A stretch of DNA of 64,000 bases from Candidatus Omnitrophota bacterium (GCA_041650295.1 JBAZLM010000005.1:36592-100591), one strand, 5' to 3'; numbered from the stretch's first letter, positions 30,441-63,300 are shown. A program made the numbers and translations. The notes: generated from the letters alone by a model not told the origin.

Positions 30441-30448
30441 CAAGGCAG

Positions 30449-30476
30449 TTGCGTAAGTTAAAGTTTCTGTTATAAT
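30449..30476 (+). promoter_or_regulatory. sigma70-like promoter upstream of the tRNA locus
   Basis: TTGCGT (30449-30454), 16-nt spacer, TATAAT (30471-30476). Located 30 nt before the tRNA-like element. Confidence 0.55.
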
Positions 30477-30505
30477 TAATTTCCTGAAAATTTTTTACTA
30501 GTTTT

Positions 30506-30580: not shown

Positions 30581-30644
30581 TTTTGTAAGGCGACTTGATA
30601 CTTAAATCAAGCCGCATGAATACTTGATAAGAGAAATTCGTTTT

Positions 30645-30721
30645 GGCGGAGTAGCTCAGCCTGATAGAGCATGCGGCTCATACCCGCCTGGTCGGTGGTT
30701 TAAATCCACTCTCCGCCACCA
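30645..30721 (+). tRNA. tRNA with CAT anticodon (elongator Met or Ile2-lysidine type), CCA encoded
   Basis: Acceptor GGCGGAG/CTCCGCC. D-arm GCTC-AGCCTGATA-GAGC. Anticodon arm TGCGG-CTCATAC-CCGCC (CAT). Variable loop TGGTC. T-arm GGTGG-TTTAAAT-CCACT. Discriminator A plus CCA. G1-C72 pair argues against initiator. Confidence 0.8.
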
Positions 30722-30802
30722 ATGTCCCGAGAGGCAGTCCTGCGAAGCGACAGCGGAGCAGGGCCACTCTCCGCCACCAATGTCCCGAGAGGCAGTCCTG
30801 CG
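30706..30802. repeat. perfect 39-bp tandem direct repeat (30706-30744 and 30764-30802) spanning the tRNA 3' end; att-like
   Basis: CCACTCTCCGCCACCAATGTCCCGAGAGGCAGTCCTGCG occurs twice, 19 bp apart. Copy 1 contains the last 12 nt of the tRNA, the discriminator/CCA, and 23 nt of flank. Confidence 0.85.
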
Positions 30803-30822
30803 CAAGCAAGATTGTCTCTTTT

Positions 30823-33331: not shown

Positions 33332-36300
33332 ATGAAAACTAAAAATAGCAAAGCTAAAAGAATCTTATCGTTGGTTTTATGTTTCGGTTTAATTTTACAG
33401 CAAATGGGTTTTGCCCAAATCGCTAGCGAATTAAATATAGCCGGCTATTTGGCTAAGTCTAATGCCAATCTGGTCCAAGCCAAATTTAGACCATTAGAGC
33501 TACGCTATTTCTCCTATAACTCCTCAAATGACAATGTTAAGCTACTTGTAGACAAAGGAGATCAGAAAGAATTAAATAGTCTCCAGGTGCAAGAACAATC
33601 TAAATCCCTATTAAACTACTTCTTAATTGGTATCACTCTACCCAACAATACATTCTGGGTTAACTTAAGGCCAGATTCTGAAAACCAAATTATTGATCAA
33701 TATTTAGAGAAAACTGATATCGGCAAGATTATGTTAGAGGCCGACGTGCAACTCAAAAAAGACACCGCCAGATTTACTTCTCCGGAAACCTCTGAAGGCC
33801 GCGTCTACTGGAATAAGCTTTATAAAAAAGCCGAGCAACTTTATGGAACTCAAAATACCACTATTCCCACATTAACTCGTCCCTGGATTGTTCCTGGCGA
33901 AGTAATCATTAGGGAATCAAATGGTAGTGCTTATGTTTACAAAGCCGTGCTCAAGGTCATGTTGGAACAGGACTATTTAAAAAATTCTACCACTTATAAT
34001 TTTAAAGATGACCGCGCCAAAGCATTAAATGAATATTCTAGTCAATTAATTAAAGAGTTAATTATTCCTAATCTAACTAAAGAGATAAACTCTAGCAAAA
34101 GATACGCCGCATTAAGACAAGTTTTTCATTCGCTAGTTTTAGCACATTGGTTTAAATCACGTTTTACCGGTAAAAGCGGTAGCTACGCCGCCATGATTGA
34201 CACTAAAAATCTTACCAATTTAACTTCACAAACAACCTGGTCAAAAACTACTTATTTTAAACAATACCAAGAATCATTTAATAAAGGTGAGTACAACGTC
34301 CAAGAACCGGTTTATACTCCTAGCGGCCAAGTAATCAGAAGCTATTTCAGCGGTGGTATGCAATTTGGAATGAATATGAAATCTCCTCTTTCCCCAAAAG
34401 GAGAAATTGGGATAATAAGCACCGACAATCCGAATCCACCAATAACACCAGAATCAGTGGTGTTTACAAGTAACGATGGGAAGTCTTTAATCGAATCTAC
34501 AATTAACGAAAACGCCCGTTCTCAGGCACCTCCAGTTGTCCAAGCTCAAACTCCTGAAGAAGCAAAAGCAGTACGTTTAGCCGAGCTAGTTCAGTTTGCT
34601 CTGGATCTACAGACAAAGTATCATGGTAAAGCCACTACCGGTAAATTTACCATCTTCTCCGGTCCTCCAGGCGGTGGTAAGAGCTTAGCTTGGGACGGTT
34701 TTGTAAAGGTAATGTTAGAGGCTCTAGTAGCTAAGGGCCAAATTGTTATCGATCCTAAATTATCCAATGATGATAACCTATTTGCTTCCGGACTATTTGA
34801 TAAATTTATTCTTTTTCATACCCGAGCGATGCGTCCAGGAGAAAAACAGGGAGGAATTAAGGATAGTAGCGGAGTAATTCAATCAGGAAATTATTATTAT
34901 AGAACGCCTGAACATTTAGAAAAATTAAAATCAGAAGGTAAAATTATTATTACTTTAGTTAATAATCAACCTCAAGGTTTAGCCCTCTATGATTTTGAAG
35001 ATACCTATACATTTAACGGAGAAACTAACACTGCATTTGTTAGCGGCCTTGCCTCTAAATTAAAACAAGATAAAATCACTATTCTAGAAGGTGGCTTAGG
35101 ATGGTTTGATGAGTTAAATAATGTATTTAAAGATATCGAAACCGATGAACAGCTAAAAGCTACCTTTGAAGGAGTAGCTAATGACGGTTTAAACAGTATC
35201 TTCATCTGTCCATTTACTGATGAGCGGATTATGGAAATTGAAGATAATGTTCAAGTTGAATATGCTCGCGCAGATAGAGGATCTAAAGAAGGCTTAGCCA
35301 TACATCAAGCCGAATACGAAGAAGCTATTGCTATCAGAGGCAGGCTAAAAGCTAAATTAGAATCTCTCATTGCCCAAGGTTCTGATGCTTTAAAAGCAGC
35401 CCTACCACAACTTCAAACTCAGTTCTTTAATATGGACAAGCAGTTCATGTCAAAGGTAGAAGTTGCTCAAGAAGATGCCTTTGGCTATGTTGCCCCAGAC
35501 AAGATCACTTCAGAAGATGCTTTGAGAAAAGCCAGCTTCCAGGAAACAATTGCTAGAATTCATTCTCGTGAAGTAAAAGAAGCCAAGAGTGTTATTGAAA
35601 CTCTAACAAAATTAATCAATGCCGGTGATCTAGAAAAGATCCAAGAATATCTAAATGATGCCAAAGCAATCAGCAAAATACTATATGCTCCGGTTACAAA
35701 TGACGAGTTAATAAAACGTGCCGATGAAGCAGCCCAACAGGTTATCCGCCGTGTTGATTATCAATACATCCTGAATAATGTTTGGATTGTGGATGAAGCA
35801 GAACGTAATATCTTTCAACGTGATTTAGGTGCAAGATTTGCTGAAGATGCCATCGGACCATTAAAAGGAAGGTTTGCTCCGGGCAAGAGTCCTGCTGATG
35901 CATTACAAGTTATTACACAGTCACAATATTTACAGGGTCTTCTAAAGGAAATAGGCTATTTTACATTAACGGATTATTTAAAGGCTTATGCAGAAGAAGC
36001 TCCAAGCTTAGGATTTGAACCTTTGGCTAAGTATCCTAGAACAACGGCTAAACGTGATTTATATACAACTAAAAATTCATTAGTTAATCAAGGAGTTTTA
36101 AGAATAAAAAATCCAGGAGTTAAAGGAGCGCCTTATGAATTTATACTCACAGAAAAAGGTGCCCAAGCTATTTTAGCTAAAGAAGAACAAAAGACCAAGT
36201 TAATTAGTAATTTTGTTACAGTATTAAATAATTATTTAAATAAACACGATTCTAGTAATCCATTAAGTACAAACAATCCTTTTCAAACAAATAATAATCA

Positions 36301-42300: not shown

Positions 42301-45300
42301 GCATTCCTATCCGGCCACTATGCCAATAACCAATAAAGCAGATAAAGCTCCTACTCCTAGACAATTTAATAAAATTCTGCAGGCTCTTGGTGGAGAGCAA
42401 GCTTTAGCCAGCAAAGGAATAACTTTAAATATAAATAATGTGGTAATTAGCCCAGCATTAGAGGCTCCGGCGGAAGTCAGAGCAGGAGTATTATACGTTA
42501 ATCCTAATATCTTACGTGGTCCTCCGAAACAATTACGCGTAATCTTTGAAGGACATGAACTACTCCACTTAATTAATCCTACCGCTACTGAACAAAGAGT
42601 ACAGATATCTACAATTAATTACTTAGTAAACCATCATCGTCTTAATGCCCACATTAAATTTTTAAATAAGAATAAATTTGGTTTGAGAGCAGATATTACA
42701 TGGTTAACTACTTTAAATTTAAAATCTAAAGAAACAGCTGCTTCTAAAGATATTAAGTTTGAAAGGCTAGCCAAAGAAGATCTGCGATCTATGGCTAAAT
42801 ATTTAAGTCCTATTCTTGCTTTTGGTATCGTATTGTGTGTTGTGCCAGAAACTATTCTCGGGGCTTTAATGGCAATTCCTTTTATCGGTCTAGCAGTTTG
42901 GCGGTTAGTATTTCCTACTAATTGGCGCTTATGGACAGTAGCTACACTTAATTGCACAGATCGTCATTATCAAATTGCTTATAATAAACTCATTAAAACT
43001 AAAAATAAAAGAACAATTAAAGCATTAATTAAATGTTTAGAGGGAAAAAATTTAAATACTTGTTTAATTGCAATTAATATTCTTGGCAAAATTTATTCTG
43101 TAAAAACAAAAGCTAATAAATTTGATCAATTAGTAGTTTTATCTTTTATTGGCTTGGCACATAAGCTGTTAAATCCAAATGAAGAGATGTTTGCCTATTC
43201 TCGTTTTAGTATCTTTAAAACTATTATAAATACTTTATCTGTTTGGGTAGATACAGAAAAAACAATATTTGAAAAATCTAGTAATGAATATTTAGCAATT
43301 TATGAATTTTTTAGTAAATTCTTAGCTTCTAATGAGACAATACAAAATTCTGGATTTGAATTTTTAGCTTTACGGGAATTCTGTAAAAAATTTCCGGATC
43401 AGACGCCAGCTCATTGTGTTAGTAATTTAGTTAATTACGTTCTCGTTGGCAGTCCAACTGATCGTTCTGCTAATGGCGTCAGTACTGAAGAGGTGGAAAA
43501 GGCCATCGCCAAATTTGGTGGAATAGAAGAAATCTTAAAGCGAGAAATTACTAAATATACTGACTATATTAATATAATTTTTGGAATTAATATAGTAGAG
43601 CAAAAATTAAAGATTTCTTCAGAGATTATAAATTGTTTAATAGCTGCTTGTGGGGTACATTTTGCGCAAGCTCCTCCAGAATGGCATATCGGTGCTGCTA
43701 TTGGAATTTGTAAGCGTGAAGGTAAAGAAGAGCCAGTAATTATTATTACACAAGCAACTTCTGCCGATGCTATTGCTCATGAAATTTGCGCGATCTTAAT
43801 CCCTGGCTTAACACATGAAGAAAATTTAATAGTAAGTAAAAGAGTTAATTGTTCATTAGCTGCTTATGACTCTACCAATGCATTAGACAATTCTTTAAAA
43901 GGACGAGTAGAAAAAGTCTCAGGGGCTTTGGCTAGACTCTATAATCTGGATTCTCGTGAATTGCGCAATGTGCTTAATTTGGCTCCGGCTTGGGAGAAAG
44001 TTTTTAATGAAGAGATTCTTCCGGAGATTATTGATGGATATCTGCAGTATTTATCCTCTCCAAATGATAAAAAGCCTGCAGCGGTAGTTTTAATTACCGG
44101 AGAAGGCGGAATCGGTAAAACTACTGTAGCTTTGTCCTTTGATGAGATTGCGGAAGCGGCTTTAAAAAGAATTCGTGATGAAAAAAAATTATCAAGACAA
44201 TCAAATTTAGTAAGAGAGATTGCTTTCGATGATTATATTTTACAAAAAAACGATCGCCAAATTGATCCGTTAACTGGAGTTGCTACTGAAGATCCTTTTA
44301 AAAAATTCGAGTATGATCGTTTCTTAAAAGATATGCTAGCTTTGAGGCAAGGACAAACTATTTATAAGCCAATTTATGATTTCAATCTGCGTGGTCGACT
44401 TAAATTTGCTCTAAATCAAGAAAATCAGATAGTTTTAATGGTGGGTAATGAAGAAATTTTAGTTGGGGTTAATGTAGAAACCCAAGAGCCGTATTTCTCT
44501 TATCAAAATAAGCAGCAAGATTCATTAATGTTGGGTACTAATGAAATTAAAGTTGAGTTAAAAATATATCGTAATACTGAAAATAATATTGTTATTAATT
44601 TGCGAGACAGCGAGCATGTTTTTCGATTTGATGAAAAAGGTAAAGTTAATGTTAATGTTGGGGATGTTACACAAGTTTTAGAAAAAGGTAATTTAGTTGA
44701 AGCTTTGGAGATGATTGTTCCGCAGGGAAAAGTTTATATCGTTGAAGGTATTTTGGCTTTACAAAGCGATAAATTAAACGCTAAGTGTTTAACGGTTTAT
44801 ATTACAGGAGGTTTTGAGGCACGACTTTTACGTATGCTTAGCCGTTCGATGGGTGAAAGTGGAAGAAAGAACACGATTCAGGAGTTAGTTGAGCAACGTT
44901 TAAGATTAATAAAACTTGAAGAAATGCCTTACATTTGGCCAGTGAAAAAGAAGGCCCGTTGGGTAGTTACTAGTTTTAGTCGTTCAGAAGCTGTTTATAT
45001 GCTTTATATTCGTGGTCAACTAAATTGTCCTAATAAGAGAATAGTGCAAATTTTAAAAAGCTTAGGAGTTGATTGTCATGCACTAGTTGATGCATTGAAG
45101 AATATTTATCAGAATGAGGTGGCGGCTCGCTTAAGCGGTGGGCAGGGAATTCCTAGTGCTATTGAAGGAACAGCCTTTCATGTTTTTATGGATAATTGTG
45201 GTTTAGTTATAAAAGTGCCCCGCGCTGAATTTTTAAAGGAATTTGAAACAAATTTTATTAAGTTTTATAATACAGTGCTTAAAACTAGATTAGGTGGATT

Positions 45301-48300
45301 GATTGTTCCAGGAACAATTATTGATTTAAATAAGCTAGGTGTGGATATTAGCAGAGTAGTTGACGGTGATTTTTATAAATTTGAAAAGGTTCTTATTCAA
45401 AATAAAGTAGTAACGCTTGGTCAAAGATTAAATGATCTCTTAAAGGTTCAAGATATAGAGGGAGTAAAGAAATTAATTGATCAGTATTTTATTTTGCAGC
45501 AAGCGCTTTGGCGAAGGGGTGTTTGGGACAATAAGCCTAAGTTTATGGAGAAATATGGTTTTATTCCTTTAGATGGAGTAGAACAATTAGTGGTGGTTGG
45601 GGTTGATGGCTTAAAAGATAGGATAGAAGAATTTGATCCTACTTTATATATGAATAAAGATTTGCGTCCGCAAAATCTGCCGGCAGAATTAGAAGATTAT
45701 TATGATCTGAAGGTTAAGGAGATGATTTTTAGTAAAAATGACTTTTTAACTTATTTTGCCAGTGGATTGAAAGAGTGTCAAATGGCTCCAGATATTTCGG
45801 ATATTGAAATTGGTCGTAAACAAATGGATCATATTGTCACTACATTAAGGCAAGCGATGTTACAAAAATATCGTAAATTTTTTGGTTGTCTTAATTATAG
45901 TAGGGATAATCCGCTAATTTATTGGATAAAGTTTTATGTGGATACAGTTTATGCTAAAGGGGTAGCGCAGCAAGTTTTGTTAAATGCTTTTTATGAACAA
46001 GTTATTGAAGATCCCCAGATGTTAGATGAAGTCTCTAAAACTACTAGCAAACTTCAGGAAAAACTTAAAGAATTTAATCATAACGGTCTAGTCAGTGATT
46101 CCGGGCTTTTAGTGATGGCTGAAGAAATGCTTTATATTAAGAATGAATTTAATCATCAGAAAACGGATTCAACTGTTGGCGCTTTAGTGGGTGCTCAAAC
46201 TAAGACAACTGAAATTACCAATTATAGTGTTGAATTAGTATCTAAGCCAAAAATTACATCTGAAGAAATTGAAAAAATTCTATCAACTATGCGCGGTATG
46301 GCGGATGCGATGGCAGTTTTATGTACCGGTATTGAAGGATCTACTTATAAAGATGTTCCCGGTTTGCTTATTGATATTCAGAAAATGGAAGAACTTTTTG
46401 GGATTATTGCTGAGCGTGTAAAATCTACGGATAAAAATTTTGCTATTCATCCGGAGCTAGTTAATATTCGCGTGGCGGATGATGCTTTGGAAACTGTTCC
46501 TTCTTTAGAGGCATTAGAGACAGATCTCAAAGTTGGTATTTATCCGATTGCGGCTAATCCGATACATCTATCGCATATATTAGTTGGAATCGAAGCGATT
46601 GCTATTGGCAAGTGTGACGTGGTTTATTTTGATGTTCAATCCGGTGGGTATGTGCTTAAACCGATTTTAACCGCGACTGAAAAATATCGATACGAATTAA
46701 GTATGATACTTTTAGCTTTACTTGCTCCGTTCTTTGGTTTTGCGATAAATATTTCTAAAGACGGCGAAACGGATATTTTTAGAATTCAGAAGCTTAACCT
46801 TAATCAGAAAAGGGTTAAGTATGTTTATATTGTAGGTAGTGATCATTATCATCGGTGGGTAGAAAAAGACGCTTCGGATAATTTAATTCGGGGAACAGAA
46901 GAATATAGGCAGTATGTTTTAGTGCACAACGGCAAAGAGCCGACTCCGGATACAATTCAGAAGATGGAAGATAAATTAGTTGAATTTGGGGTGGATGCTT
47001 CGGAACTGGCCATATTATTTGTGGAGCGCATCGGTGAAGAAGCGCAAGAAACAATTGCTAGTTTATTAGATATCAGCATGCTTCCTCCGGTCGGGATGGC
47101 TTCTTCTACGGCGATTCGTAATGCTTTCAAGGCAATTGAAAGAATGACTAAGGATGAAGGCAATTTAAGCGCAGTGGAATTAGCAGAATTGCAAAAAGAT
47201 TTATTGAAAGGGTTAATTTATCTGCCGTATGTTAGCTACCAGTATATTATCGACCATTTGGATTATTTAGATATGCTGGTGCATCCTGAGGAATATGATG
47301 GGAGCAAGCCGGCTGATCGTGCGGCTAATGGCGCAAGTGCTAAAAGAGTTGATGCGGCTATTAATGATTTTGGTGGAATAAATGAAATTTTAAAGAATGA
47401 AATTAAGGATATTCTTTATGATAGAAATATTATGTTAGGTATTAATAAGGCGGCCTATAGCATGGATCAGGATCCTACGGCAATATATAGCGCGTTGATT
47501 GCGCGAGGAGTACATTTTGCTCAGGCACCTCCGAATTGGAAAATTGGCTCAGCCATTGGTATCTTAGATAAAGATGGAAAAATAGAATTGGTAGTTATCC
47601 TCTCTAAAGATGCAAATCCTGAAGAAGTTGCCCATGAAATCCGCGCTGTATTAATTTCAAGCTTAACTCACCAAGAAAATCAGTTATTAAGATCTAGTGA
47701 CAAAGTAGTTAAGAATATGTTTACTCATTCGATTGCTTTTCGTGGCTTGTTAACTCCCGAAGAAGACGCTGCCGTTGAATATTTTGATGACCCGATTAGC
47801 CCAGCTAAAAAAGGAGCAGTTCCCCTAAGCACACTTAAAGAGTATTCAGCAGCTGAAGAAATTATTTTTAACATCAAAGATATTGAATTAAAGAATCATG
47901 GTGCGCTGATACTTAATGAAGATTACCTGAAAAAATTTCATATTTATTTCTATCAGACTACTAGTAGTCCATCGCCTAATGCCAGCGTTGATTTTCAATA
48001 TATGAATATTTTTGTTTTTGCTAAATCTGCAGAAGAACTCAACGCACAGATTATTGCTAAAATATTAGTGCATGAATTAGTTGAATATGTTTTGGTTGAA
48101 CATTACTTAACAAATAATCAGTCAGCTAATTTTTCTGTAGCGCATCAGCAAGCCCTAGCAACAGTTAAGGATCTTGATGCCTTTATTTTAGCGAATAAGA
48201 AAACGAATAATTCTAGTGAAGCGCAATCACTATCTGATAAATTGATAGGTCAAAATAATGGCGCGGTAGTAAATACCTGTGGTAAAGATTTTCCTGTGAT

Positions 48301-51300
48301 TGCTAAATATTTTGCGGATGATCCGAGAAAAACATATTTGGCCTTGCGTAATTGGCAGAAAGAATTTAAGCAGCTTTTAGGGCAGGATAAAACATTAGAG
48401 CAGCTCACTACTTTTAAAGACGATCAGCATCCGGCCGGCACAGAGTACTTCTTATTAACTGATGAGCAAGGCAAATTTTTAAAGGACATTCAGGGTAATT
48501 ATATCATCCGTCCGCGCGATCTTTGCCATCAGGACGGGTCCTATCATCGCAGCGTTTTGATCGCCGCTATTGATTATCAGGGTAAATTTTTAAGGCAACA
48601 GCGTTCACAAACCAAGAGAATGTTTAAGCATTATTATGATCTTTCAGCCTGCGGGCATACTGCTTTGGATGCGGATTTGACAGGGGCGGCCCAAAGAGAG
48701 CTGGAAGAGGAGATATTCAATGATGAACATAAGATTGATTTAGCACGCTTAATTCAAATTACCCCGGATGCTTCGGTGCAGCATGATTTTATTTATACTG
48801 ATGAAAATGGTAGAAAATATATTGATAATGAGCGGTCGACGCTTTTTGTTTATTTTATGACCGAGGAAGAAAAGTTAAAGATTAAGTATCAGGTATCGGA
48901 GGTTGATCCTAAGGGCTGTAAATGGCTATGGTTTAAAAAAGAGGCGAATCGATATCGGGCTCATCCGGATAAATATGCAGCTGGCTTTAAAAGAGTGGTA
49001 GATAACCAGGATTTATATATAAAATTAACTAGTGTTGCAACGAGTGTTTATGGTGAAAATTATGCAGCAATTGCTGAAAAATTTGATGCCGAAACTTTTA
49101 AAGCTTTATATAAATTGACACATGAAGATCTCGACAATAAGGCCATGCAAGAAATTATGAATATAATTATAAGTAATTATCAGGAGCAAGGAATGATAGA
49201 CCGACTTTTTGGGATTGATTTATTAAATCCAGTAATGCAGCCGCTCGATTTTAATGATTTTAAGCGCCAGGAAGAAAACACTAGGTTTGTAGCTGACCGA
49301 GTGTTTCAGCTCACGGATTCTCATGATAAGTTATCAGTATTTAGTAGAGATAGATTACTTGATATGATTTGGGATGCCTTAAGGATAATTTATCTTTGGA
49401 TGCCCTTGTCTATATTTAAAAGATTTTATAACAATCAAGCGGTAGTGTCTGGACATGCTATCATGCATACTTTGGATGTTTTGGATGAGTGTTTTAGAAT
49501 TCAGAATGAACAGAAATATTTTTTATGGGAAGAAGATATCAAAAATTTAATTTTTGCCTCCTTGACTCATGATTTAAGTTATCTTATATATCAAGAAGGA
49601 CACTATCATTTTTCTTCAATTTGGGCAAGTGCTATTCTGGAGAAGAATAAAAAATATAATAAACATGCAGGAGACTGGACTTTTGGGACGCATAATAATA
49701 GATATGATGAAATTAAAGTGGGGGATATTATTAAGTTACATGATAAGGCAAAAGAGTACAATCTATACGATAATAATCAAGCAGCGGCGATTCTTCGGGA
49801 TGCTGATAAGTTAACTGCTGATTTAGATCCGCAGAGAATATATGATGCTAAGTGGTCAAATATATTGGAAAAGAACGGTTATACGCTAGAAAGGCCGGTA
49901 CCTTTTACAGAAATATTTTTTAATCCTCAAGAAGATCTTGATCATCGGGTAAAGGTGATAATCGATAATCTTCCGTATGATAGAAGTGATGCGGTTACAG
50001 ATCTTTTCCGTAAGATTATATACGATCGCAAGCAAGGTGGTGGATATTTGACCCGAGGGGGATCAGATATAATAAGCACTGCGGCTAATGATTTAAGTGT
50101 ATTGGTTGATTTTATTATAGATAAAGCGCAGGATTTGGAAGAAAAATATGGGTTTGGATTAGAAAGAATAGAACAAATTAAAGGAATTTTTTATGAACTT
50201 TATCATGTTATTTTTAATCAATGTTTTACTGAATCCCTGATTAATATAAATACAACTCGGGAAAATGAAATTTATTCACAAGAATTTAATTTGTTTAAAA
50301 GCAATCTAATCAACCGTATTTTAGAATTTAATCGAAGAATGCAAGAACCGTTGTTCTATGATAATGATGAAGATATTAATATGATTTTTTACGTATGGGA
50401 GTCTCAAGAGAGTCTTAACGCCGTTAAGTTTCTTGGGTCAATGGCAAAGGAAGGTTATTTAAACCGTGGCGAGATTGAATTAATTAAGGAGAATATAAAA
50501 ATTGCTTATGGACCAAACAAGCAAGTTCCTTCTGATTTTTTCCCGCTATACGATCAAATTTTTGATTTGTTTACTGTTGATTATGATACTGTTTTAGGTT
50601 ATTTTAACGATGTTGAACAAAATTTAGATACTACTTCAGGCCTTCGTAGTCAATTACAGGATTATTTAAATATTTCAGGGCAAGATAATAATCCTTTAGA
50701 CCGCTCAGCTAGAGGTAAGAGTAAAAGAAAAGTTAATGCGGCTATTAATGAATTTGGCGGGATAGAAAAAATACTGCAAGAGGGGACGTTGGATGTTGGC
50801 CTTTTCCAAAAGATTAATTCAGGTATTGATTGTACAGCAAAAAGTTTGGGAAAGACCGGTGAAGAGATTGAAAGATTATTGATGTCTAGGGGTGTGCATT
50901 TTGCGCAGGCGCCTCCGGGATGGGAAATCGGTCCAGCGATTGGTATTTTGAATCGCGATGAGAAAAAAGAGCTGGTAATTATTGTCCCCAAAGATGTGGA
51001 CATCGAAGATCTTGCCCATGAAATCCGCGCGGCAATTCTCCCCGGTTTAACCCATCAAGAAAATTTAAATATACAGGCAGTTAAAGAAATCCAACTCGAG
51101 CCGGTTTTTATTTCAGCAAATAAGCAAGCGCTTTCTTCTGAAGTAGCTTCAAATAAAGATTTTTTTGTACTGGTATTTAATTGCGGCAGCTCTTCAATTA
51201 AATACCAGTTTATTAATATGCAGGATGAATCAGTGGTGAAAAAAGGGACGATTAATATGATTGGCGAAAGCGATGGCCCGGCGAATTATTTAGAAGTAAT

Positions 51301-54300
51301 TAAGAATATTTTGGCGGATTTGTCTAGCTCCGGGTTGACTCCTTCGGCGATCGGTCATCGTGTAGTGCATGGTGGGGATAAATTTGAGGCATCAGTTTTA
51401 ATTAATGCCGATGTTAAGGCGGCGATTAAGGATTGTTTTAAGCTTGCCCCGCTGCATAATCCTGCGCATCTTATGGGCATCGAGGCTTGTGAAGAGCTGC
51501 TCCCGGGCATTCCGCAGGTTGCAGTTTTTGATACCGCTTTTCATAGCACTTTGCCTGCAGAAGCTTATTTATATGCTCTTCCTAAAGAGTATTACACTAA
51601 GTTTGGTATTAGGAAATATGGTTTTCATGGCACCAGCTATCGGTATGTCGCTAGTGCTGCGGCCAAACAATTAGGCATTCAGCCGGAAGATTTGAATGCG
51701 GTGATCTGCCATTTGGGTAATGGATGTTCAGTGGCAAAAATAAAAGCGGGAAAATCCGTGGATACGAGCATGGGGCTTACTCCTTTAGAGGGATTAGCCA
51801 TGGGCACGCGCTCCGGGGATATTGATGCCTCTGTGTTGGAGTTTATCGCTAATGAAACCGGAAAGAATATCGAAGAGCTGATGGCAATGTTAAATAAGGA
51901 TAGCGGATTATTAGGCATTTCCGGAGTAAGTAATAATATGATTAAATTACATGAAGCATTGGGAATAATTTCTCCGCGCCGGCCAAAGGAGATTAAAGAT
52001 GGAATTTCTAAAGTTGAGTTTTGGGCGGCGCAAGATGAAGATTTAATCAAAAAATATACTGCTTTAGCGCTTAAGGTTTTTACTTATCGCGTCGCCGGTT
52101 ATATCGGCAAGTATTATTGCGGCTTGCCGGCGGAGAGCGCTAAAATTATCTTTACGGCGGGCATTGGTGAGAATGCCGGTATGATTCGGCAAATGATTTT
52201 AGATCAGCTTCCGGGAATTGCGAATTTAGAGCAGCGGGTAATGGTGATTCCTACGGATGAGGAGCTGATGATTGCTCGAGATACGCAGGAGATTATTGAA
52301 AATATCCGGAATAATTCTATTTTGGCGCACAAGGGTTTTTTTGTTAAAGAGCAAGTTGGAGCACTGGTTAAAGTTTTAGGTTCTAGTACAACAAATGATA
52401 GTCAATTGGATGTAGATAATTTTATTATGAATATTTCGCAGTATGGCGCAATGACTACGGGTAAATGGTTAGGTCACCGGGAAAAAGTCGCGCAGGTAGT
52501 CAATGGTGAATTTTATAATGTTGTTCCGGTTACTATGCAGTTAGCACCTACTACAATTTGCCAATATAATTGTCCTACTTGTAGTTACGGTCGATCAAAA
52601 GAGGAGATCAGGAGTGCACTAAAATCAAAGACTGCCAATAAAAAAGATTTTTTTATGAGCATGGAAGATATGAAATTATATTTGGATCGCATTAAAGAAG
52701 CAGGAATAAAAGGTGTTATCTTCACTGGAGGTGGCGAACCGTTATTGAATCCTTACACGATAGATGGACTGGAGTATGCTAAGTCTTTAGGTTTACAGGT
52801 AGCCATGTTTACGGATGGCTACTTACTTACTCCGGAAACTGCTCAACGGATTATGAAAATTGGTTTAGTATTTTTACGCATTAGTTTTAACGCAGGAACG
52901 CCGGTTACCTATAAGCATTTTCACGGCACGACGGAAGATGCTTTTTATCGTGCAATTAAAAATATAGAGAATATAGCTGTGGCTAAAGAAATAACAAAGA
53001 GCCAAACCTCATTTGGGATTGGCGTTATCATTACTCCGTTAAATATTAAGGATCTTTTACATATTGCCAAGATTGTTAAGTCAATTGAAGAGCGCCATCC
53101 GGGAATGATTGAATTTATAGCTTATCGGCCGACCGTTCGTTATGAGCGTGGCTGTCAAAGAACCTTATTTACAAAGCAGGCGGTTGAATATATGCGCCAG
53201 ACTCCGGAATTAAGCCGTTATTATCAGGCGTATTATGATTTTATTTACAATGGAAAACAGTTCCCGGCTTCATTATTTCAAGAAGCGGTTACGATATTAG
53301 ATAACGAAGTTAAGCCATATTTGGAAAGTGGAGAATATCCGGTTAAGCTATTAACACCAAAAGGACGTATTGAAGGAGTTTACCAGACCGAAAAGCCTTT
53401 TTCGAAATGCTTAGCTTGTCCTTGGTGTAGTTTTATCGGACCGGAAGGCAATGTCTATCATTGTGTCGAGTTAGCGGTTGATTCTAGAACGATTTATGGC
53501 AACCTTAAAAAACAAACATTTAAAGAAATATGGGAAAGTCAGCAGAGAAAAGATGTCATTGAGCGGGTTAATGTTGAAGGGATGAAGTCTTTCTGTCCTC
53601 CAGTATGTTTATTATTTGAATATAATAAAATATTTGAAGATATTCAGCAGGGGTTAACTAATCCGGTGGTTCGGGAAAGATTGATTAAGGAAATTGAACG
53701 ATTTAGAGTTAGATTTGAACAGGAAGATTTGCCCATAGTCGGTAAAGGAGTAGATTTTATGTACCCGGCGAGGATGCCAGTAGCTAATGAGGAAGATCGG
53801 GAGCCGAGTAAGGCGGAATTAAGAATAATCCGCCGAGCCTTTGGCGGCAAGAGATATTATGAGAAAATTACTGGTAAAAAATTCAAGGATTTGGTAATTG
53901 TCCTTTATGCAGATTCAGATGTGGTGACCGAAGTTACTCCATCCGGAGCATTGTTAATTAACCCGAATCTTTTGCGCGGCCCGCCGAAACAGTTAAAAAT
54001 AATCTTCCAAAATCATGAATTATTTCATTTGCAGAATCCGAATATTGCTGAAGAGTTAGCCCACGCTTATACTATTCAATATTTATTAAAAAAAGGTTTA
54101 TTACAACGCCACCTATCCTTCTTAAAAAATAATAAAATTGGTTTAAAGCCGAATCGAGATTGGTTGTTAGAGTTAGAATTAGAAGATGTATTAATAAAAG
54201 TGATATCTTCTAAAGCTTCTCCTGCGCAGCAGGTAGCGATGATTGTTGAAAGAGCAGTTAATTTATTTAATCCAGATATAGTTTTTCAATGTATAGATGC

Positions 54301-57300
54301 CAGCCGTTGGATTAATTCTGGTTTGGATAAATTAGGTATCGTAAATTCACGCCGGGTAATTCATCTTAGCAAGGACATTACTCGAGAGCCGAAGATTGGC
54401 GAAAAAACCGAATATCACGATATTATTGAAGCGGTTTTTGAGGGCCAAATCTGGGTCATTGATACCCAAGCAAGACAATTTACGCAACAAACTAATAGTA
54501 GAATTCATGGTTTGTCTTTGGAGTTTGCTAATAAGTATATTTACAGCGCCAAAGATTATTATTCTATGCTTAAAGCGTTCTGGCTTGCTATGTCGGTTTT
54601 CCAAATTTCAGAAGCTTTGATTGATTCCACTGCTACCTCCCAAGGAATTGCGCCAGATTTAAAGAAAGCTTACTCAATTAAAAGTTCACGCATAAATTTT
54701 AAAAATTTATTAAGATTTTTAAGGGGAGCTGTTCAGCATAAAATAGGCCAAGGTATTATTTTGCATAACTTTGTGCCGTTTCCGATATTAGCTTTGGCAG
54801 TTTGGCCGGCAATAGCCGATTTTGTTGCAGCGCATCCGATATTAATGGGAGTAGGTATTTTATTAACTGGTGTTTGTTTAGCTTTGGTTTTATGGCGTAA
54901 ATTATTTCCGGTGAATTGGTATTCGCGAAGATTGAAAAGTTCGTTGGCTGAAGTTCGTGTTGAGGCAGCTATTGCTTTAGGAAAAACTAAAAATCATAAA
55001 GCCGTTAAGCCACTATTGGTGACGATCTATGATCATCATCTTTTAGTGCGCGACGCGGCGGTTGGCGCTTTGGGTCAGCTTAAAGATAGTCAAGCCATTG
55101 AGCCATTAATTGAATTATTTAGGATTTCAGATGATTATCGTAAAACGCTTATCATTAAAGCTCTTAGTGAAATAAGCGGTGAAAAAGTGTCAGTGGATAG
55201 CCTTGGCGCGGTGGTGGGTAGTAAGTTCGGTGAGCAGGAAGCAATTAAGATGAGTCAGGCGCTGCCTCTAGAACCAGTCGCTTCACCGCTTAGATTTGGC
55301 ACCAGTGGCTGGCGCAGTAGTAGATATACAGATTTTGTCATGCCCAATGTTCGACGTATATTAGAAGGAATTGCTTTGTATCACGATAGGGTGCTTAAGA
55401 AAGGAACATTTTTAATTGGTTATGATCCTAGAGCCGAAAATCAAAGTTTTGCTAAAGAAGCAGCGAGTATCTTTGCGGCACATGGTATTAAAACGCAAAT
55501 TATAATTAGTGATCCAACTCCTACTCCGGTTTTAGGATACTTAGCTGGTTCTAATGATGAGATTGCTGGAATTATCATTTTTTCCGCTAGCCATAACCCT
55601 GCCGAATATAATGGTATAAAATTTTATCAATATCACGGCGGTTCGGCGGATGTTGAAACTACGGATGTTATTTCAGAATTAGCCAATGCCGCCATAACCT
55701 ATAGGATAATGGATTATCAACAAGCTAAAGTAGAAGGCTTAATTACTGAAATTACTTTAGGTCAAGTAATTCAAAAATATGTTTTTGAATATATTATTCC
55801 TAGAGTTAAAGAAATCGGCGCTTGGAATGATATCGTAAATTATATCAAAAATAATCCGGAATTTGTGTTGGTGGTTGATCCGATGCAGGGTGCGGCGGTA
55901 GAATACTTAAAAGCAATTTATTTGCAGCTAGCCAAAGAAGCCGGTCGGGACTTCTTTATATTAATTCATACCAATAATCATGATCCAGAATTTTTAGAAG
56001 TAAATAGCGCGCCTAATCCGACATTGCCAGAAAATATAACTGAACTAATTAGTAAGGTATCCTTCGGCAAACAGGTTTTTGGTTTAGCGGTAGACGGGGA
56101 TGCGGATAGATTTAGAGTGATTGATTTTGGTGGCAAAGTTATTGAGGCTTCAGATGTAATTGCTATTTTAGCGCATTTTTTAAATACAGAGATTGGCTTG
56201 ACTGGTGTGATTGGAAAAAGTGTAGCCACATCTAATTTTGTCAATGCTATTGCTAAATATTTAAAATTAGATTTAGTGGAAGTTGGGGTAGGGTTTAAGA
56301 ATTTTGTGAATCAAGTAGTTAAAAATAAGGTTAATTTCTTAGTGGGCGGAGAAGAATCGGCCCATGTTTGTTTAGGGCTGTTGAATCAGTCTTGGGACGA
56401 TGGCATTGCTATAGGGCTATTGTGTTTTTGGGTAGTTGCGCGTACCGGCAAAACTATTTCTGGGTATAAAACTAGAATTGAAAAAGAAGTGGGGAAACAT
56501 TTTGACTCTGAAGTAATTACAATTTATGGCCAAGACGATTCGATTAAGGATGTAATTACTAATTTAATTCAAAAGACTGCAGAGGAACTAGAATCCGGAG
56601 TTCCGGCTTTAAAGACGACAATTGTAAAACAGGTCAGCAAGTTACAAAATAAGAAGGTAAAGGAATTAATTACTTTAGATGGCTTAAAAATTGTTTTTGC
56701 ATCCGACGATTGGATCCTTTTGCGACCTTCGGGAACTGAGCCAGCAGTTAGGCTTTATGTAGAAGTCACAGATTCATCTAAATTTGCTAGCTTGGTTAAG
56801 CTAGGTAGGGCTTTATTGGGAGTAGAAGAAGAGATTAGTCAAAATTTAAACCCGATTGCTTACCGCGGTTCTTTAACAGATGAAGAAAATTTGATTGCCC
56901 AAAGGTTAGCTAAAACAGCCGATCCTCTGACAGAAGGAGCAAGAGTGGCAGGGAGCTTAAGAGGGTATAAATCTGCAACTAGCATAATTTGCAATAATAT
57001 TAAAAATATTCATCTAGATGCTTATGGTAAGTTAGAATTAGAAGCTATTTTGAATAAATTTTCAATTTATTTTTATCAAACTGCTAATCGTTCGCCACCT
57101 AATGCGGTAACCGATGCTTTCAACCATCGTATTATCATTTTTGCTAATACAGAAGAGGAGCTCACCCATAAACTTTTGGTAAAAATTTTAATTCATGAAC
57201 TTGTCGAATATGAAATTCTCAATGACCCTCAGGTAACCACCGCTATTGCCCATCATCAAGCAGAGTTAGTTATAGATAGCTTAGATGATGTGGCGATTTT

Positions 57301-60300
57301 ATTCAACGATGAAGAATCGATATATTTTTCTAAAACAATCATTGATGCATTAAATAAGCTATTTTTAGAGCAAGATTTCTTAGATTATTATAATTTAATT
57401 TATCCGCAGAAGTTAGCTATCACTGGAGTAGATCATCAGCCCGGAAGAGATTTAGTAGATATTTTAATTGATACTACTTCTGGACAGCGTGAATTCAAGG
57501 TAGCTTTATATAAATCTGGCTATTCATTAGATAATAACATAGAAAATAGATATTTAAGGATAGCTAGTAGAATTGTCGGATTATATCAAAATTTTCTTTT
57601 GCAAAGAATAGATAATGAATTAGATGCTGTTGGGATTAAAACCGCAGATGTAATTGAACAAATTGAAGATTCATTTCGTCAAACTGTTTACGATCAAGAA
57701 TGGGAATCTTTAAGTGAGGGCTCAGATGCCAAAGTATATAAAAATCAGGATTCTTCATTAGTAATTAAGGCAGTAAAAGAAAGAAGTCTTAGTTATGATT
57801 ATTCTTATAATGTTAATCCTTTTATAAATTATCAATTAGCAAAACAATATTTAGGGCATTTAGCTGTACGTTTTTTAATCTTGGATAATTTGAAAATTAG
57901 ACTCCCAGATAAAGATGGGAATATTGAAGAAGTAATTATTGAAAGAGCGGTTGTGCAGAAATTTGTTAAAGTATTTTTTAAATTAGGAGTACATGACTAT
58001 ACAAAATATGAACATTGTACTGGTATTTTAGCCGATTTGATTAAAGAAGGAAAAATTGAAACGGCAAAATTTATAATTGGTGAATTTTTAAAAGGCGTGC
58101 GAGCAATTTTAGCCCGTGGATTATTTGATTGGGATATCAAAGCAGAGAATTATGGATATGATCCTTCGGTGGGTAAAGTAGCAACATTGGATATGGGTAA
58201 ATTATTGTTATATGATCAGGTTGTGCTTACTTCAGCAAAGGTATTTGTAAGAAATTTAAAAATTACCAGCGATGATATCTATGAATGGACTAAATTTGTT
58301 ATTAATCAAGAAGCGGCTCTTGAATTAAAGAATTATTTTGATACTTCAGTAAAAAAGGTTTTTTGGTTGGCCTATGATGAGGTGGGATTAGATATTACTA
58401 AAGATCTGAATGTTTTAGATAAAGAACATATGTTAGAAGACAGTGTGCGATATGATTTATGTTATGACAATTCAATAGGAAAGCCGGTTAATTATGCCGG
58501 TACTAGAGAAACTAGAGAAAGGGCTGCGCGGTTAATTTCTAAATATTTAAAAGACAATAATATAGATATTGATGCGGTGGAGATGGTTTTTGCTAAATTT
58601 GGTTTTGCCCAGCTTTGCCAAGAAACAGAAGTTTCTAAAATGTTATCCGATGGTTTTGTTTCTGATAATATTTTCTGTCTTGCTTTAGATGAAAATAGCA
58701 ATCCTTATTGCGGTATTAAAGCCAGAGAGCCCAAGAATTTTCCTACTGTTCAATATGTATTATATAACGATGAATATAAAGGCCAGCTTACTACTCGTCA
58801 AGACTCTGTTAATATTAAAAAAGCAGTAGTTAAAACATTGCTTCGATATTATGACTATCGTCAAGAAGTATATGATACTTTAGCAAAAAAATTTGCATTG
58901 GATAAAACTTTAAAAATTTGGAATTCTATGAACTTGAGGGAAGAATTTGAAAAAATAAAATACAATAATTTAAACGTTGATCAGAAGGATACCTTGAATT
59001 TATTATTAGGTATTTGTAAAGATGGTGATTTAGCTGGAAGGATGATCTTGGCTTTCGATGAGTTGGCAGAGACCAGAAGATATCCTTTTGGCATAGATTT
59101 GAATAAGATGTATTTGATTAAGTCCGAGAATGATTTTGCCGTTGAGGTCTTTGGGATGGGTACCTTTACTCGGAAAACCCAGGAAAAAGAGGTGCTCTTG
59201 CATATGCATCAAAATCTTAGCTTTTCTTACGAGGATATTTTGGAGGCGATTGTAGAAAGTAAAGATGAGATGGGTGCAACTATTTTTATTAGTAAGGTTT
59301 ATTTTCAGTGTAGTGCAATGGATAGCGAGCTTAAAGAAGTATTAATGAAAAAATTAAACCAGCTTCGTTCCTCTGATTATACTGGCGTATTTGATAGTGT
59401 TGTAAATGGTTTACCTAAGAATCATTTGCTTTGCTCAGCGAACAATTTAACTGATCAAAATAATGCCTATCCTTTACCGGTGCCGGAAGCGGTTCGCTCT
59501 GATATAAATAAAACATTTATTAATTCCACGGTAAATAATTTAGAAATACAGACTTCTCATATTCCGGTGAATGCTTATTTTGAGTCGCTGCAAAATATTT
59601 TAAGCGTTTTTAAAAAATGTTTTGGTCGCGCTCCCCCGAGATTAGGTCTCTGGCAATTGCTTGTTTCCACGGATTTAAGCTTAACGCGAGGCAAGGTTGC
59701 CGCCTGCGATATTAAATCCCGAACTGTTTATCTGCACACTTATTTTTTTCAACTTTCCCAAGCTAAACAATTAGAAATTCTTTATCATGAGCTCATTAGC
59801 CATATGCAAAAGGGTATCGCCGATGAAAATATTGCTCTGCGTGATACGAATGCTTTCTTTTGGCTACAACCCAATGCTCCCCAACTAGTCGGGAAAACGT
59901 TGATGACTTTATCGATGGAAGGTAATATTCCGGAATTTGCCGGATATCCGGATGCGCAGAATGCTTGTACTCGGGGTGGATTAGGTGCATATTTTGGCGA
60001 TAAGTTGGAAGGGTTGTTTGCGATTGGCTTGACTGCCTGGGGCGTTGAGCCGGCTTATGCTTATACTACTAGAGATGGAAAAGATATCGCCGTGGATTAT
60101 GCGCCATTATTTAATCAGGGCGTGATTAGTAAAGTTTTAGATAAAAATGGTGCTCCTTTAGTGTTACAAGTTTATGCTTGGGATGATCAATGCAAAAGTT
60201 CACTTTATAAGGATAAATCCATCGCGGTGGAAGTTTGGCTGGTTAACCGCGGAGGCACGCCGCTATATCTTTTATACTCACAGGAAGTATTTAATAATCT

Positions 60301-63300
60301 TTATACGGATAATCGTGCACATCGTTTTACTCAGGAGATAGTTTTTGGTAAAGCGGTTTATTGTTTAATGAAGACACTTAAAATTGTTCCGGATATTATG
60401 CATTTAAATGAGGCGCATACCGTAGTGGCTGCCGCGCAGGCTAGAGCGGACAATGATTTTAACAAAATGGTTATTGTTTATACCAATCACACATTAGTTC
60501 CGGCTGGACTGGAAATTTTTCATGCTTCCAATTTGGGCGTAGACTCTAACCGGATGATGTATCAAATTGGCGTGCCGGCGGAAGAAGAGTGCAAGTTTCG
60601 TTCATATTTTTTACGTGCGAACGGAATGGTAGATTTTTGTTCTGCAGCAGTGCATTTAGCCGATGTCATTAATGCGGTGAGCTTAGAGCATGCGGCGGCA
60701 ACACAGAGACTTTTCCGTTCGATGTATGGTGATGAATTCAAGACTAAAGTTGTGGGTGTACTTAATGGTTCAGGTAAAACTTGGATGAATGATTCATTAA
60801 GGGTAATTCAAGATCGTGGTCTAATGGCTAATCAGGAAGAGTTAAACTTAATTCATCAAAAGGGTAAAATAGAGGCTTTTGCAGAGATTGAAGCCAGAAC
60901 CCAGGTGCAATTAGATTTAAGCAAACCAACGATTTGGATGGTGCGTCGGATTGTAGATTATAAGAGCCAGTATCCGATGTTACGATTTTTATTACATATT
61001 TTGTGTGCTGATCGCAATATTAGCTATACGCGCGATCAACTGCAAACAGCTTGGTTTAGAGATATTCCGGATTTATTAACACAAGAGAATCGTAATTTAT
61101 CGCAAGAGGTGTTGAATTATATTTTTGCCCAAAAAGAAAGGGTTTTCGGTTTAGGATTTCAGGTAGTGGTGGGCGGTCCGGAGTATATGTCATTTTGGAT
61201 TGCTGAATTTAAACGTTGGTCGCTACTTCCTGAATTTAGAGGAAAATTTATTTATGTGCCAAATTCGGATGCCCGCTTGCTTAAGATGCAAGCCATTGGG
61301 GCGGATATTTGTATTAATATCCCTCGACCGTTAGAAGAGGCTTGCGGAACTTCTGATCAAAGAACTGGATTAAACGGTGGGGTTAATGTGGCTATCCGTG
61401 GCGCTGGTCCGGTAGAGTGGATCACCGATTATAATGAACAGAGTAAAGCGGGAAGTGGATTTTTATTAGAGTCATATACTAATACTGTAGATAATGAAGT
61501 TACTGCAGATAATTATTTATTTTATCGTAAGGCACCGGCCGATATTCTTTCTAAGTTAGAAGTAGCGCGTGGATTGTTTGATCTGCAAGATAAGTCTGCT
61601 TGGAAAAAATTGATGCACGATGCTTACCTTGACGCTAACGCTAAAGTGAGCGCTAAAGCGATGGAACAGCGTTATGCTTTAAATGTTTACCAACCTAAGG
61701 CGACAGATGAATTAAGAAAAAAAATAGCGCAAGCTAATGATTTCCCGCTTTCTGCGATGGAGATGATGGATGTGTTAGAGCTGGGAATTTGCCAGCAGGA
61801 TAAGCAATTGCTTTTTGATTTATTAGCCAGGGTAAAATCCACAATTTTTCCTGCCGCCACCGGGCGGATTATGAAAACGATGATGAAGATTTGCGACCGG
61901 TATGGGTATGAGATTACTCAAGCGCAGGCAGATATTTTGCTAAGTTTTGCGGATAATTTATATTTCCCGGAAGAAATCTGCGAATTTTTTACTAAAACAC
62001 AATGGCGTGGCTACGCTTTTAATTATTTAAATGAAAAATTCCAAAAAATTCATCCGGATGCAAGCATTAGTTACGCTCCGACGCGGCGAAGAAACTTGTT
62101 GTCAAGTTTAAGTATTTTAGCTAAAGACGCTGGCTTACTACAAGAAACTTTAGACCAAATATGGTTTAATTCAGCGGTTAGGTTTAGCCGAAGATATATT
62201 ACTTACGAACTTAGAGAAGGTAGAATTAGTGAAGTTAAAGATGAGGCGATAATTTTTATTTATCATAAAAATCCTAACGGCAAAATAAGTTATGAATCGA
62301 TTTATGCGCATGGAAAAGTTAGGCCTGATCATCGGACCTTGTCGCCAGGTCAGAAATATATGGGTAAAGTGTTTAAAGTCGGAGAAATTTATGAGGGGAT
62401 GCCGGCATTTGATTTCAATGGAGAAGAAATATTAAAAGATTGCGATGAGAATATCCTTTCTTTACGGGGGACATACACTGAGCTGGAAAGTGTAGTAGGG
62501 GGATTTGTAAGATTGGATCTGCCCAGACTTCCGGTAGAACAATTATTAAATGTTACCGGTGAAAAAGATCTAGATGCTTATATTTTTAGACAAATTGTGT
62601 CGGCAGCGAAATTTATGGCAGCCATTGTTAACCCGCAGAAAGAATTAGTCTTAGAAGCGTTGATCAAAGAGAGCTTAGAAAAAAGATTTAATCGCTCATT
62701 GCCTTTACGTTTTTCGATCGAAGATTTTAATCGTTGGGTAGCCGGGGAGCAAGTTTTAGGAATTCAGAATCAGCAAAAAATAGTTATTCCAAATTGCGCT
62801 GAACTTGAGTCGGTTTGTGTTTCTGACTCAGATGGAATACATCCTAGATTTGCATTAGCTTTAAGAGATATGCTTGATGAAAAATTTCCGGGGGTACAAG
62901 TAGTTTTAGAAAAAGCTGATGGAAGAATGGCTTTTGCCAGTGATGATCAGGAAATTACCAAGTTGGCTTGTACGCAGGGTGAAGTAATCTATGTATTTGC
63001 TTGGGGTGATAGTCATCGCCATGCTGCTGCGGCCTTGGATAGAGTTATTTCGTTAATTAATCCTAATGGACGTACTATTGGTCTTACTTTTGGTCACGGT
63101 CGAGGTCTGGTGATGAGAGCCGATGAAGTTTTAGCTGTGCAGCAAAGCGGAAAGACTATCCATCATCCTTTTCTGTTGGCGGGAAAAAATCCAGCTGATT
63201 TGGAGAATGTAATTTTGGAAATTTCTTCTTGGGGCGCATTACAGGGGGTGATGACGGTTAGCGGCGGTGAGTTTAACCATGTTGCGGTAAATTTTAGAGA

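Follow-up and report, generated by a model that had tools for sequence, protein, structure and literature searches.

The locus examined here raises the question of whether acetate kinase (AckA), a cytosolic fermentation enzyme, can form part of a giant protein with a signal-like N-terminus, and of what it would do there. The DNA is a 64,000-nt stretch from Candidatus Omnitrophota bacterium (GCA_041650295.1, JBAZLM010000005.1:36592-100591), hereafter called the window. All coordinates are those of the whole window on its + strand, and residues of the giant protein are numbered from the ATG at 33332. An original prediction, made from the sequence alone, had placed a complete AckA fold at 51160-52310, in the middle of this protein. 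Our analysis revealed that the segment is a genuine, complete acetate (or propionate) kinase domain. It is probably an active-type AckA module within a membrane-anchored Omnitrophota giant multi-enzyme protein, derived from the short-form ackA of the phylum itself.

Identity and fold of the acetate kinase module

The Pfam family Acetate_kinase (PF00871) matched the segment with an E-value of 8.8e-114 (380.6 bits; cut-off 22), so that the profile search, which the original prediction had named as its refuting test, recovered the acetate kinase family. The NCBIfam model TIGR00016, 'acetate/propionate family kinase', scored 381.9 bits, the curated cut-off being 293.4. Equivalog-level models (NF009045 and others) stayed below their cut-offs for the module, and likewise for a stand-alone Omnitrophota AckA (P0008). 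Alignment of the Methanosarcina thermophila AckA (1g99) to the segment gave an E-value of 2.8e-95, which together with the PF00871 value excludes a chance match.

The module was also modelled with AlphaFold2, as had been suggested. On a 121-homologue alignment the mean predicted local distance difference test score (pLDDT) was 89.3 and the predicted template modelling score (pTM) 0.87; this run superseded a shallower one on a 10-sequence alignment (pLDDT 69). The top 38 Foldseek matches of the model were all acetate/propionate kinases (template modelling scores, TM, of 0.69-0.86). The two best, 1g99 from M. thermophila and 2iir, had TM values of 0.81-0.84, indicating a superposable two-domain ASKHA fold, and the nearest PDB structures are thus AckAs. 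All eight AckA motifs listed beforehand were found, in order and in a single frame, from 51176 to 52276 (Table 1). The predicted coordinates and the completeness of the fold are therefore borne out by the sequence profile, the NCBIfam cut-off, the predicted structure and the catalytic residues.

The catalytic site and its surroundings

With regard to the catalytic site, the proposed alignment to a characterised AckA found the catalytic residues all intact relative to the M. thermophila enzyme, whose numbering is used here. Asn7, Arg91, His123, Asp148, His180, Asn211, Arg241 and Glu384 are identical in the alignment, as are Ser10, Ser12, Lys14, Gly212, Gly239, Gly331, Ile332 and Asn335. The acetate pocket, formed by Val93, Leu122, Phe179 and Pro232, is also identical. 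The module thus shares with M. thermophila AckA (1g99/1tuy) all residues implicated in catalysis, acetate binding and Mg binding, as well as the fold (TM 0.81), and by eye the core 86-291 is about 60% identical.

In contrast to that enzyme, the window copy is embedded, has N and I at positions 283 and 285, and differs in length at several sites. Relative to the classical 400-aa AckA, it is shorter by about 25 aa in the N-domain and by about 20 aa close to the C-terminus, and it carries two insertions, one of 4 aa (GLTP) and one of 26 aa, GIISPRRPKEIKDGISKVEFWAAQDE. The latter lies in domain II, directly after LOOP4, and is the sole long low-confidence stretch of the AlphaFold2 model, being predicted as largely disordered. 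A single insertion before the C-terminal ASKHA subdomain had been expected; an insertion does exist, but it is neither the only length change nor at that place.

Embedding of the module in a giant open reading frame

The giant open reading frame (ORF) contains no stop in 10,223 codons, compared with 854 and 1,240 stops in the other two frames, and it is still open at the 3' end of the window. The host protein is therefore at least 10,223 aa long, in agreement with the predicted length of more than 10,000 aa. A single + strand frame is open through 51000-52500, and both AckA junctions are in frame. Neither an ATG, GTG or TTG nor a Shine-Dalgarno-like sequence was found ahead of the AckA domain, and no stop was found after it. 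Without a start, a Shine-Dalgarno sequence or a stop of its own, the module can be produced only as part of the giant ORF, and it is not a free-standing product of about 350-400 aa.

The G+C content at third codon positions (GC3) of the AckA segment is 0.42, compared with a giant-ORF mean of 0.29. Islands of raised GC3 (0.40-0.48) were observed at giant aa 40-230, 2561-2788, 4970-5160, 5941-6363, 8522-8680, 9017-9140, 9410-9592 and 9919-10124. Several of them overlap recognisable domains and the AckA island is the longest; neighbouring housekeeping genes have a GC3 of 0.25-0.33. The islands could reflect modules imported from donors with a higher GC content, or selection on codons where sites are conserved. 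A foreign or chimeric origin of the AckA segment, considered on the grounds of its high GC and GC3, was rejected because similar islands occur at other conserved domains of the ORF.

Origin and recurrence of embedded acetate kinases

Among 5.8 billion proteins, the best stand-alone homologues of the module were AckAs of 350-357 aa from Omnitrophota metagenome-assembled genomes (MAGs), with 48-52% identity in the search and 48-55% depending on the alignment. These short-form enzymes (for example MEW5758232.1 and MFA5144402.1) share both deletions of the module, its catalytic residues and Met284. The shared deletions and the best stand-alone matches together indicate that a short-form ackA of this phylum was the source of the module. 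Unlike the stand-alone enzymes, the window copy has the 26-aa and GLTP insertions, lacks Asp283/Arg285 and has no start or stop of its own. A scan of GTDB representatives and one of metagenome contigs returned only stand-alone AckAs of about 45% identity, mostly from gut and other Bacillota.

A HMMER scan of 1.84 billion representatives, for which the query was a 1,171-aa segment covering AckA and the downstream module, identified at least seven other long proteins (1,000-5,900 aa) with an embedded AckA (Table 1). One of them, P0130, is MDD5583773.1, 'ribose 5-phosphate isomerase B, partial [Candidatus Omnitrophica bacterium]'. Another, P0129, is MBW2045211.1, 'acetate/propionate family kinase, partial', and is labelled 'Deltaproteobacteria bacterium'; the JGI entries with an embedded AckA bear the plain name 'acetate kinase'. 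Collinear relatives of the giant protein were also sought among the long HMMER matches and the idea was rejected: BLAST of the whole giant returned similarity to the AckA or radical-SAM modules only.

At the post-LOOP4 site of the window copy, an insertion of 26-35 aa occurs in embedded copies only, namely the window copy, P0127, P0129, P0130 and P0131. Its motif, 'LGI...AAQD.D..KK', is clearest in the window copy, P0127 and P0130. The four other insertion-bearers likewise sit among sugar- or central-metabolism enzymes. In contrast to the window copy, they keep Asp283/Arg285, and their flanking modules differ (glutamate dehydrogenase (GDH), epimerase, or Pta with RpiB and HAD) and are not collinear with it. 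Embedded copies retain the catalytic set, with the exception of P0130, which shows N211A and G239A.

Neighbour-joining trees with bootstrap were computed on the core alignment columns. The window copy and P0127 were sisters in 77% of the bootstraps, and P0132 and P0178 formed a separate embedded clade in 100%, which implies that embedding arose at least twice. The five insertion-bearers were monophyletic in only 37%, and the unity of this group therefore rests mainly on the shared insertion. Embedded AckAs fall into at least two lineages, of which one carries the post-LOOP4 insertion, and several of the proteins with an embedded copy come from Omnitrophota MAGs.

Short repeats were noticed by eye in some of these proteins. 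In P0130, '(S/P)LDNGG' occurs at least nine times between enzyme modules, once directly after AckA, and in P0178 and P0132 'RSEAR/RSEVR' occurs many times, also flanking AckA on both sides. They look like linker or cleavage signatures.

Relation to known giant and fusion proteins

The window protein belongs to the class described as Archaeovorins or 'multi-enzyme metabolic clusters'; it is of a known kind, and its AckA module is a new detail. With Archaeovorins it shares an ORF of more than 10,000 aa, the Omnitrophota host and glycosyltransferase family 5 (GT5), PGM/PMM, NUDIX, radical SAM and HEAT domains. The description of Archaeovorins lists GT5 glycogen-synthase-like and other glycosyltransferases, methyltransferases, NUDIX, HEAT_2 and Radical_SAM and, more rarely, triosephosphate isomerase, glucose-phosphate isomerase, FBPase, PGM/PMM, aldolase and PPDK (West-Roberts et al. 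2023, 10.1101/2023.11.21.568195). The sugar module of the 'multi-enzyme metabolic clusters' comprises starch synthase, GT1, PGM, radical SAM and ROK kinase (Nielsen & Lui 2026, 10.64898/2026.06.07.730766).

Since giant Omnitrophota multi-enzyme proteins had already been described and an AckA is embedded in seven or more further long proteins, the view that the arrangement is highly unexpected was not supported. Acetate kinase is not named as an embedded domain in the accessible text or in one supplement of these two preprints. What is new here is the recurrence of the embedding, its occurrence in at least two lineages, the tandem with Pta, and a window copy that is unique in lacking the Asp283/Arg285 pair. 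Fusions of Pta and AckA in either order (for example P0169, 1,155 aa) resemble the window protein in that AckA is covalently joined to other enzymes. However, they are soluble two-domain pathway partners, whereas the window AckA belongs to a long series of modules, among which no Pta can be seen within the window.

Membrane topology

Topology was assessed from hydropathy and charge only. The giant protein starts with a signal-like N-terminus, MKTKNSKAKRILSLVLCFGLILQQMGFAQ, and contains about 12-15 hydrophobic transmembrane-like segments, with a dense cluster at aa 1659-2340 and two segments at aa 3153-3193. A signal peptide and transmembrane helices are found together in 39% of 916 giant proteins of this class (Nielsen & Lui 2026).

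The stretch of aa 4475-7140, which is free of transmembrane segments, holds the NUDIX domain, the HD-like region, AckA and the radical-SAM/SPASM module. It is bounded on the upstream side by a segment with uninformative flanking charges and on the downstream side by a hairpin with Lys/Arg on both outer flanks (two and three positive residues, no acidic ones). By the positive-inside rule, both sides of this hairpin would be cytoplasmic. Radical-SAM/SPASM enzymes require Fe-S clusters, S-adenosylmethionine and a reductant, and AckA, NUDIX, PGM and GT5 enzymes require nucleotides or sugar phosphates, all of which points to the cytoplasm. The AckA stretch most likely faces the cytoplasm, in which case a cytosolic fold in a signal-peptide protein would present no real paradox.

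Function of the module and alternative explanations

In the reading that we favour, the module would be translated as an internal part of the giant membrane-anchored multi-enzyme protein and would interconvert acetyl-phosphate plus ADP and acetate plus ATP at the tethered array. In acetogenic or fermentative Omnitrophota this reaction would be the ATP-yielding step, and the enzyme array would gain a local ATP/acetyl-phosphate exchange of its own. The identity of the fold, the catalytic residues, the in-frame embedding, its recurrence and the Omnitrophota host are observed, while enzymatic activity, a cytoplasmic location, the reaction's direction and any coupling with adjacent modules are inferred. 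The Pta-AckA tandem of P0130 supports a canonical catalytic role for the embedded copies. Of the functions originally proposed, that of a phosphotransfer module is favoured, while those of a sensor or a structural mimic are not, given the intact catalytic set.

Several observations weigh against this reading. One concerns LOOP4, where Asp283 is replaced by Asn and Arg285 by Ile. The D/R pair is invariant in the 19 comparison sequences and is present in all 11 stand-alone enzymes compared, and none of the other sequences examined shows D283N together with R285I. Several further near-invariant positions differ as well (P247A, H184Y and Q153S), and nucleotide binding by the module may be weakened or altered. 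Furthermore, AckA is a homodimer, and an embedded copy may not be able to dimerise. No Pta domain was found by Pfam search in the visible 10,223 aa. Naive counting of transmembrane segments leaves the side of the AckA stretch ambiguous, as parity hangs on one weak segment.

The gene itself is corroborated by other assemblies only in its first part. The ENA contig ERZ27247363 k141_1439332 (153,246 bp) and the Logan contig SRR8542065 are both 100% identical to the window, and by the record coordinates they appear to end about 1.25 kb and 1.2 kb into the giant gene, respectively. Both independent short-read contigs thus break at about 34.53-34.58 kb and do not corroborate the ORF past about 34.55 kb. 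The break at about 34531-34584 is not explained by any repeat in the window; it might stem from variation of the giant gene among strains. Finally, no close orthologue of the giant protein was present in any collection searched, which makes selection on this copy unmeasurable.

The LOOP4 substitutions can be judged from work on M. thermophila AckA. Arg285 is placed planar to the ring of adenine and contacts Asp283, and replacement of Arg285 by Ala, Leu or Lys lowered kcat only about 7-9-fold and raised Km modestly; the pair is described as important but not essential (Ingram-Smith et al., PMC4390882). Because these variants lose so little activity, D283N/R285I is read as altered or weakened nucleotide handling and not as the mark of a dead enzyme.

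A further step can be proposed tentatively, although we consider it more likely wrong than right. The embedded AckAs with the post-LOOP4 insertion might be a shuffled module lineage that serves as an on-board energy or phosphodonor unit via acetyl-phosphate. If so, acetyl-phosphate would regenerate ATP for the tethered nucleotide-dependent modules, or would itself be made locally, and the giant would be a self-powered membrane-anchored metabolon as opposed to a surface adhesin or a degradative coat.

Among the alternatives, a pseudo-enzyme survives best, although we consider it unlikely. The AckA fold would then be a sensor of a ligand (acetate, acetyl-phosphate or a nucleotide) or a structural spacer, without turnover. 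The loss of Asp283/Arg285 and of several near-invariant residues in this copy only is in line with this idea, as are the disordered 26-aa insertion adjoining the nucleotide pocket and the long tree branches of the embedded copies. P0130 moreover carries N211A and G239A, at positions where substitution in M. thermophila greatly cuts catalysis. Nevertheless, all residues essential for phosphoryl transfer, acetate and Mg are kept in the window copy at only about 50% identity to any relative, the Arg285 variants are still active, and the P0130 module directly follows Pta, its canonical catalytic partner.

Somewhat less likely still is a polyprotein that is cleaved at inter-module punctuation, the freed AckA being the working acetate kinase of the organism. 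A repeated module of about 65 aa with a His/Glu motif lies shortly 5' of the PRK and AckA domains, with others before NUDIX and GT5, and P0130 and P0178/P0132 have protein-specific inter-module repeats of their own. Peptidase C39 is common in such giants, according to Nielsen & Lui 2026. However, the 65-aa module resembled none of the known peptidase families, the phylum has many short AckAs that stand alone, and cleavage of giant Omnitrophota proteins goes unreported in the available text of the giant-protein preprints and PMC10066038.

An exported or prey-directed effector, in which the AckA stretch would drain acetyl-phosphate or ATP, or process acetate, at the contact with a host or prey, is improbable. 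The signal-like N-terminus and the even number of strong hydrophobic segments before AckA in a naive count would allow it, and West-Roberts et al. report glycolytic-type Archaeovorin domains predicted to be extracellular and propose a predatory role. The same authors caution that missed transmembrane helices may flip such predictions. AckA needs nucleotides, the adjoining radical-SAM/SPASM module is implausible to assemble after Sec export, and the positive-inside rule at the hairpin argues for a cytoplasmic stretch.

An artefact, in which misassembly into a chimera or loss of a stop codon fused an ordinary ackA to adjacent ORFs, is highly improbable: the GC3 of AckA is well over the ORF mean and the part of the giant gene beyond the two contig ends was not reproduced in the collections searched, but the junctions are in frame around a domain without start or stop, GC3 islands mark other conserved domains too, two further copies of the 65-aa module just 5' of AckA are present in this ORF, AckA bears the embedded-type insertion, and unrelated contigs show similar embedding.

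With an active-type module as the preferred reading, the ATP-yielding enzyme of acetogenic fermentation joins the enzymes already recorded within Omnitrophota giants. The recurrence of embedded AckA, once in tandem with Pta, supports a view of the enzyme-rich stretches of these proteins as cytoplasmic metabolic arrays over one as extracellular predation tools. In practice, reconstructions of Omnitrophota MAGs based on KEGG Orthology or Pfam may call 'acetate kinase present' from a module of a giant ORF, and NCBI and JGI already label such embedded fragments 'acetate kinase'. The domain of 390 aa is small, well modelled and easily expressed, which makes it a tractable first test of the activity of a giant-protein module.

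Other modules of the giant protein

The radical SAM/SPASM module starts some 40 aa past the end of AckA, with no transmembrane segment in between, and is 46-48% identical (BLASTP) to that of other Omnitrophota long proteins. In the 5' direction, the 736 aa between NUDIX and AckA (48959-51166, giant aa 5210-5945) gave no match at E<=1e-3 in a word-seeded search of 5.8 billion proteins, and the sub-threshold HD match is the sole signal in this interval (Table 1).

The repeated module of about 65 aa has the consensus RGVHFAQAPPxWxIGxAIG...AHEIxAxL...LTHxEN. This 'APP...HEI' module gave no significant match to a Pfam family; it might serve as punctuation between modules, in docking or as a peptidase-like element. 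Pieces resembling 'xAPP...HExxH' were also observed in P0121, P0125 and P0128.

Table 1. Features of the window and of other long proteins with an embedded AckA.
Feature	Position	Strand	Giant aa	Basis or remarks
Giant ORF, at least 10,223 aa	33332..64000	+		ATG at 33332; continues past the window's 3' end
Signal peptide or signal anchor, N-terminal	33332..33418	+	1-29	MKTKNSKAKR + hydrophobic core; hydropathy/charge
Repeated ~65-aa module, copy	43650-43850	+	~3440-3510	~75 aa upstream of PRK
PRK/uridine-kinase-like P-loop domain	44087..44437	+	3586-3702	PF00485, E=4.9e-7
Last transmembrane-like segment before the AckA stretch	46697..46753	+	4456-4474	Flanking charges uninformative
Repeated ~65-aa module, copy	47504-47700	+	~4725-4790	~280 aa before NUDIX
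NUDIX hydrolase domain	48542..48949	+	5071-5206	PF00293, E=2.3e-5
Possible HD phosphohydrolase	49463..49822	+		H...HD...H...D by eye; PF01966, E=0.16, full profile length, sub-threshold
Repeated ~65-aa module, third copy	50888..51085	+	5853-5918	RGVHFAQAPP...AHEIRA...LTHQEN; ends 28 aa ahead of AckA
Acetate/propionate kinase domain	51167..52306	+	5946-6325	Profile, 1g99 alignment, model
FNCGSSSIKYQ (PHOSPHATE1)	51176..51208	+		Asn7, Ser10, Ser12, Lys14; 1g99 alignment
HRVVHGG	51356	+		Motif position
LHNPA	51452	+		Motif position
DTAFH	51530	+		Motif position
HLGNGCS	51710	+		Motif position
DTSMG	51761	+		Motif position
GTRSGDID	51803	+		Motif position
LOOP4, SNNMIKL	51929..51949	+		Alignment; SNDMRKL or SSDFRDL in relatives
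26-aa insertion	51962..52039	+		Alignment
FTAGIGEN (ADENOSINE)	52151..52174	+		Gly331, Ile332, Asn335 kept; 1g99 alignment
IPTDEELMIA (C-terminal)	52247..52276	+		Glu384 kept; 1g99 alignment
Radical SAM + SPASM module	52433..53560	+	6406-6743	Radical_SAM and SPASM domains; Pfam
Transmembrane hairpin	54764..54901	+	7145-7190	Hydropathy
HEAT repeats (HEAT_2)	54932..55165	+	7201-7278	Pfam
Phosphoglucomutase/phosphomannomutase, PGM_PMM I-IV	55292..56794	+	7321-7821	Pfam
Repeated module, distant variant	~59630-59850	+	~8766-8840	~125 aa before GT5
GT5 starch/glycogen-synthase catalytic domain, Glyco_transf_5	60221..60709	+	8964-9126	Pfam
CODH/ACS (Wood-Ljungdahl) cluster	25516-30440	+		CdhD + Fe-S protein, RACo-type corrinoid activase, CooC/ParA-like ATPase, second CdhD
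P0127, 1,569 aa	AckA at aa 1142-1562			Glutamate dehydrogenase
P0129 (with P0393), 4,099 aa	AckA at aa 328-714			NAD-dependent epimerase
P0130, 4,704 aa	AckA at aa 2227-2605			PTA_PTB immediately upstream; RpiB and HAD downstream
P0131, 1,000 aa	AckA at aa 2-418			
P0132, 2,269 aa	AckA at aa 1780-2037			GH2
P0142, 2,440 aa	AckA at aa 1688-2075			HEAT repeats
P0178, 5,896 aa	AckA at aa 4031-4387			Phosphoglucomutase, by eye

Host and other genes of the window

The host of the giant protein is an Omnitrophota bacterium. MFA5092965.1 of 'Candidatus Omnitrophota bacterium' matches the LepA encoded in the window at 100% identity, and among the next approximately 120 LepA matches (78-96% identity) all named ones are Omnitrophota/Omnitrophica, save one 'bacterium'. 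The Omnitrophota AckAs had accession numbers outside the MAG range of this LepA. Besides LepA, the window encodes GatA/GatB, a CtpA-type protease and TsaD. A carbon monoxide dehydrogenase/acetyl-CoA synthase (CODH/ACS) cluster lies 3 kb 5' of the giant gene, in agreement with an acetogenic host whose ATP-yielding step is acetate kinase. For Gorgyraia/Velamenicoccia, the core metabolism is predicted to be acetogenesis via Pta-Ack (PMC10066038).

A second multi-enzyme fusion was observed at 10971-17264 (+), where an ORF of 2,097 aa combines GDH_HM3, Bac_GDH_CD and ELFV_dehydrog with UDP-glucose pyrophosphorylase; P0127 likewise couples GDH with an embedded AckA. The intergenic region from 30440 to 30823 contains an exact direct repeat of about 39 nt at 30706-30802, present twice and 58 nt apart, which is the only exact 21-mer repeat of the window. 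Two ORFs of about 1,000 aa lie near the 5' end: that at 7528-10746 (-) has no recognisable domain, and that at 4507-7506 (+) has a single TPR.

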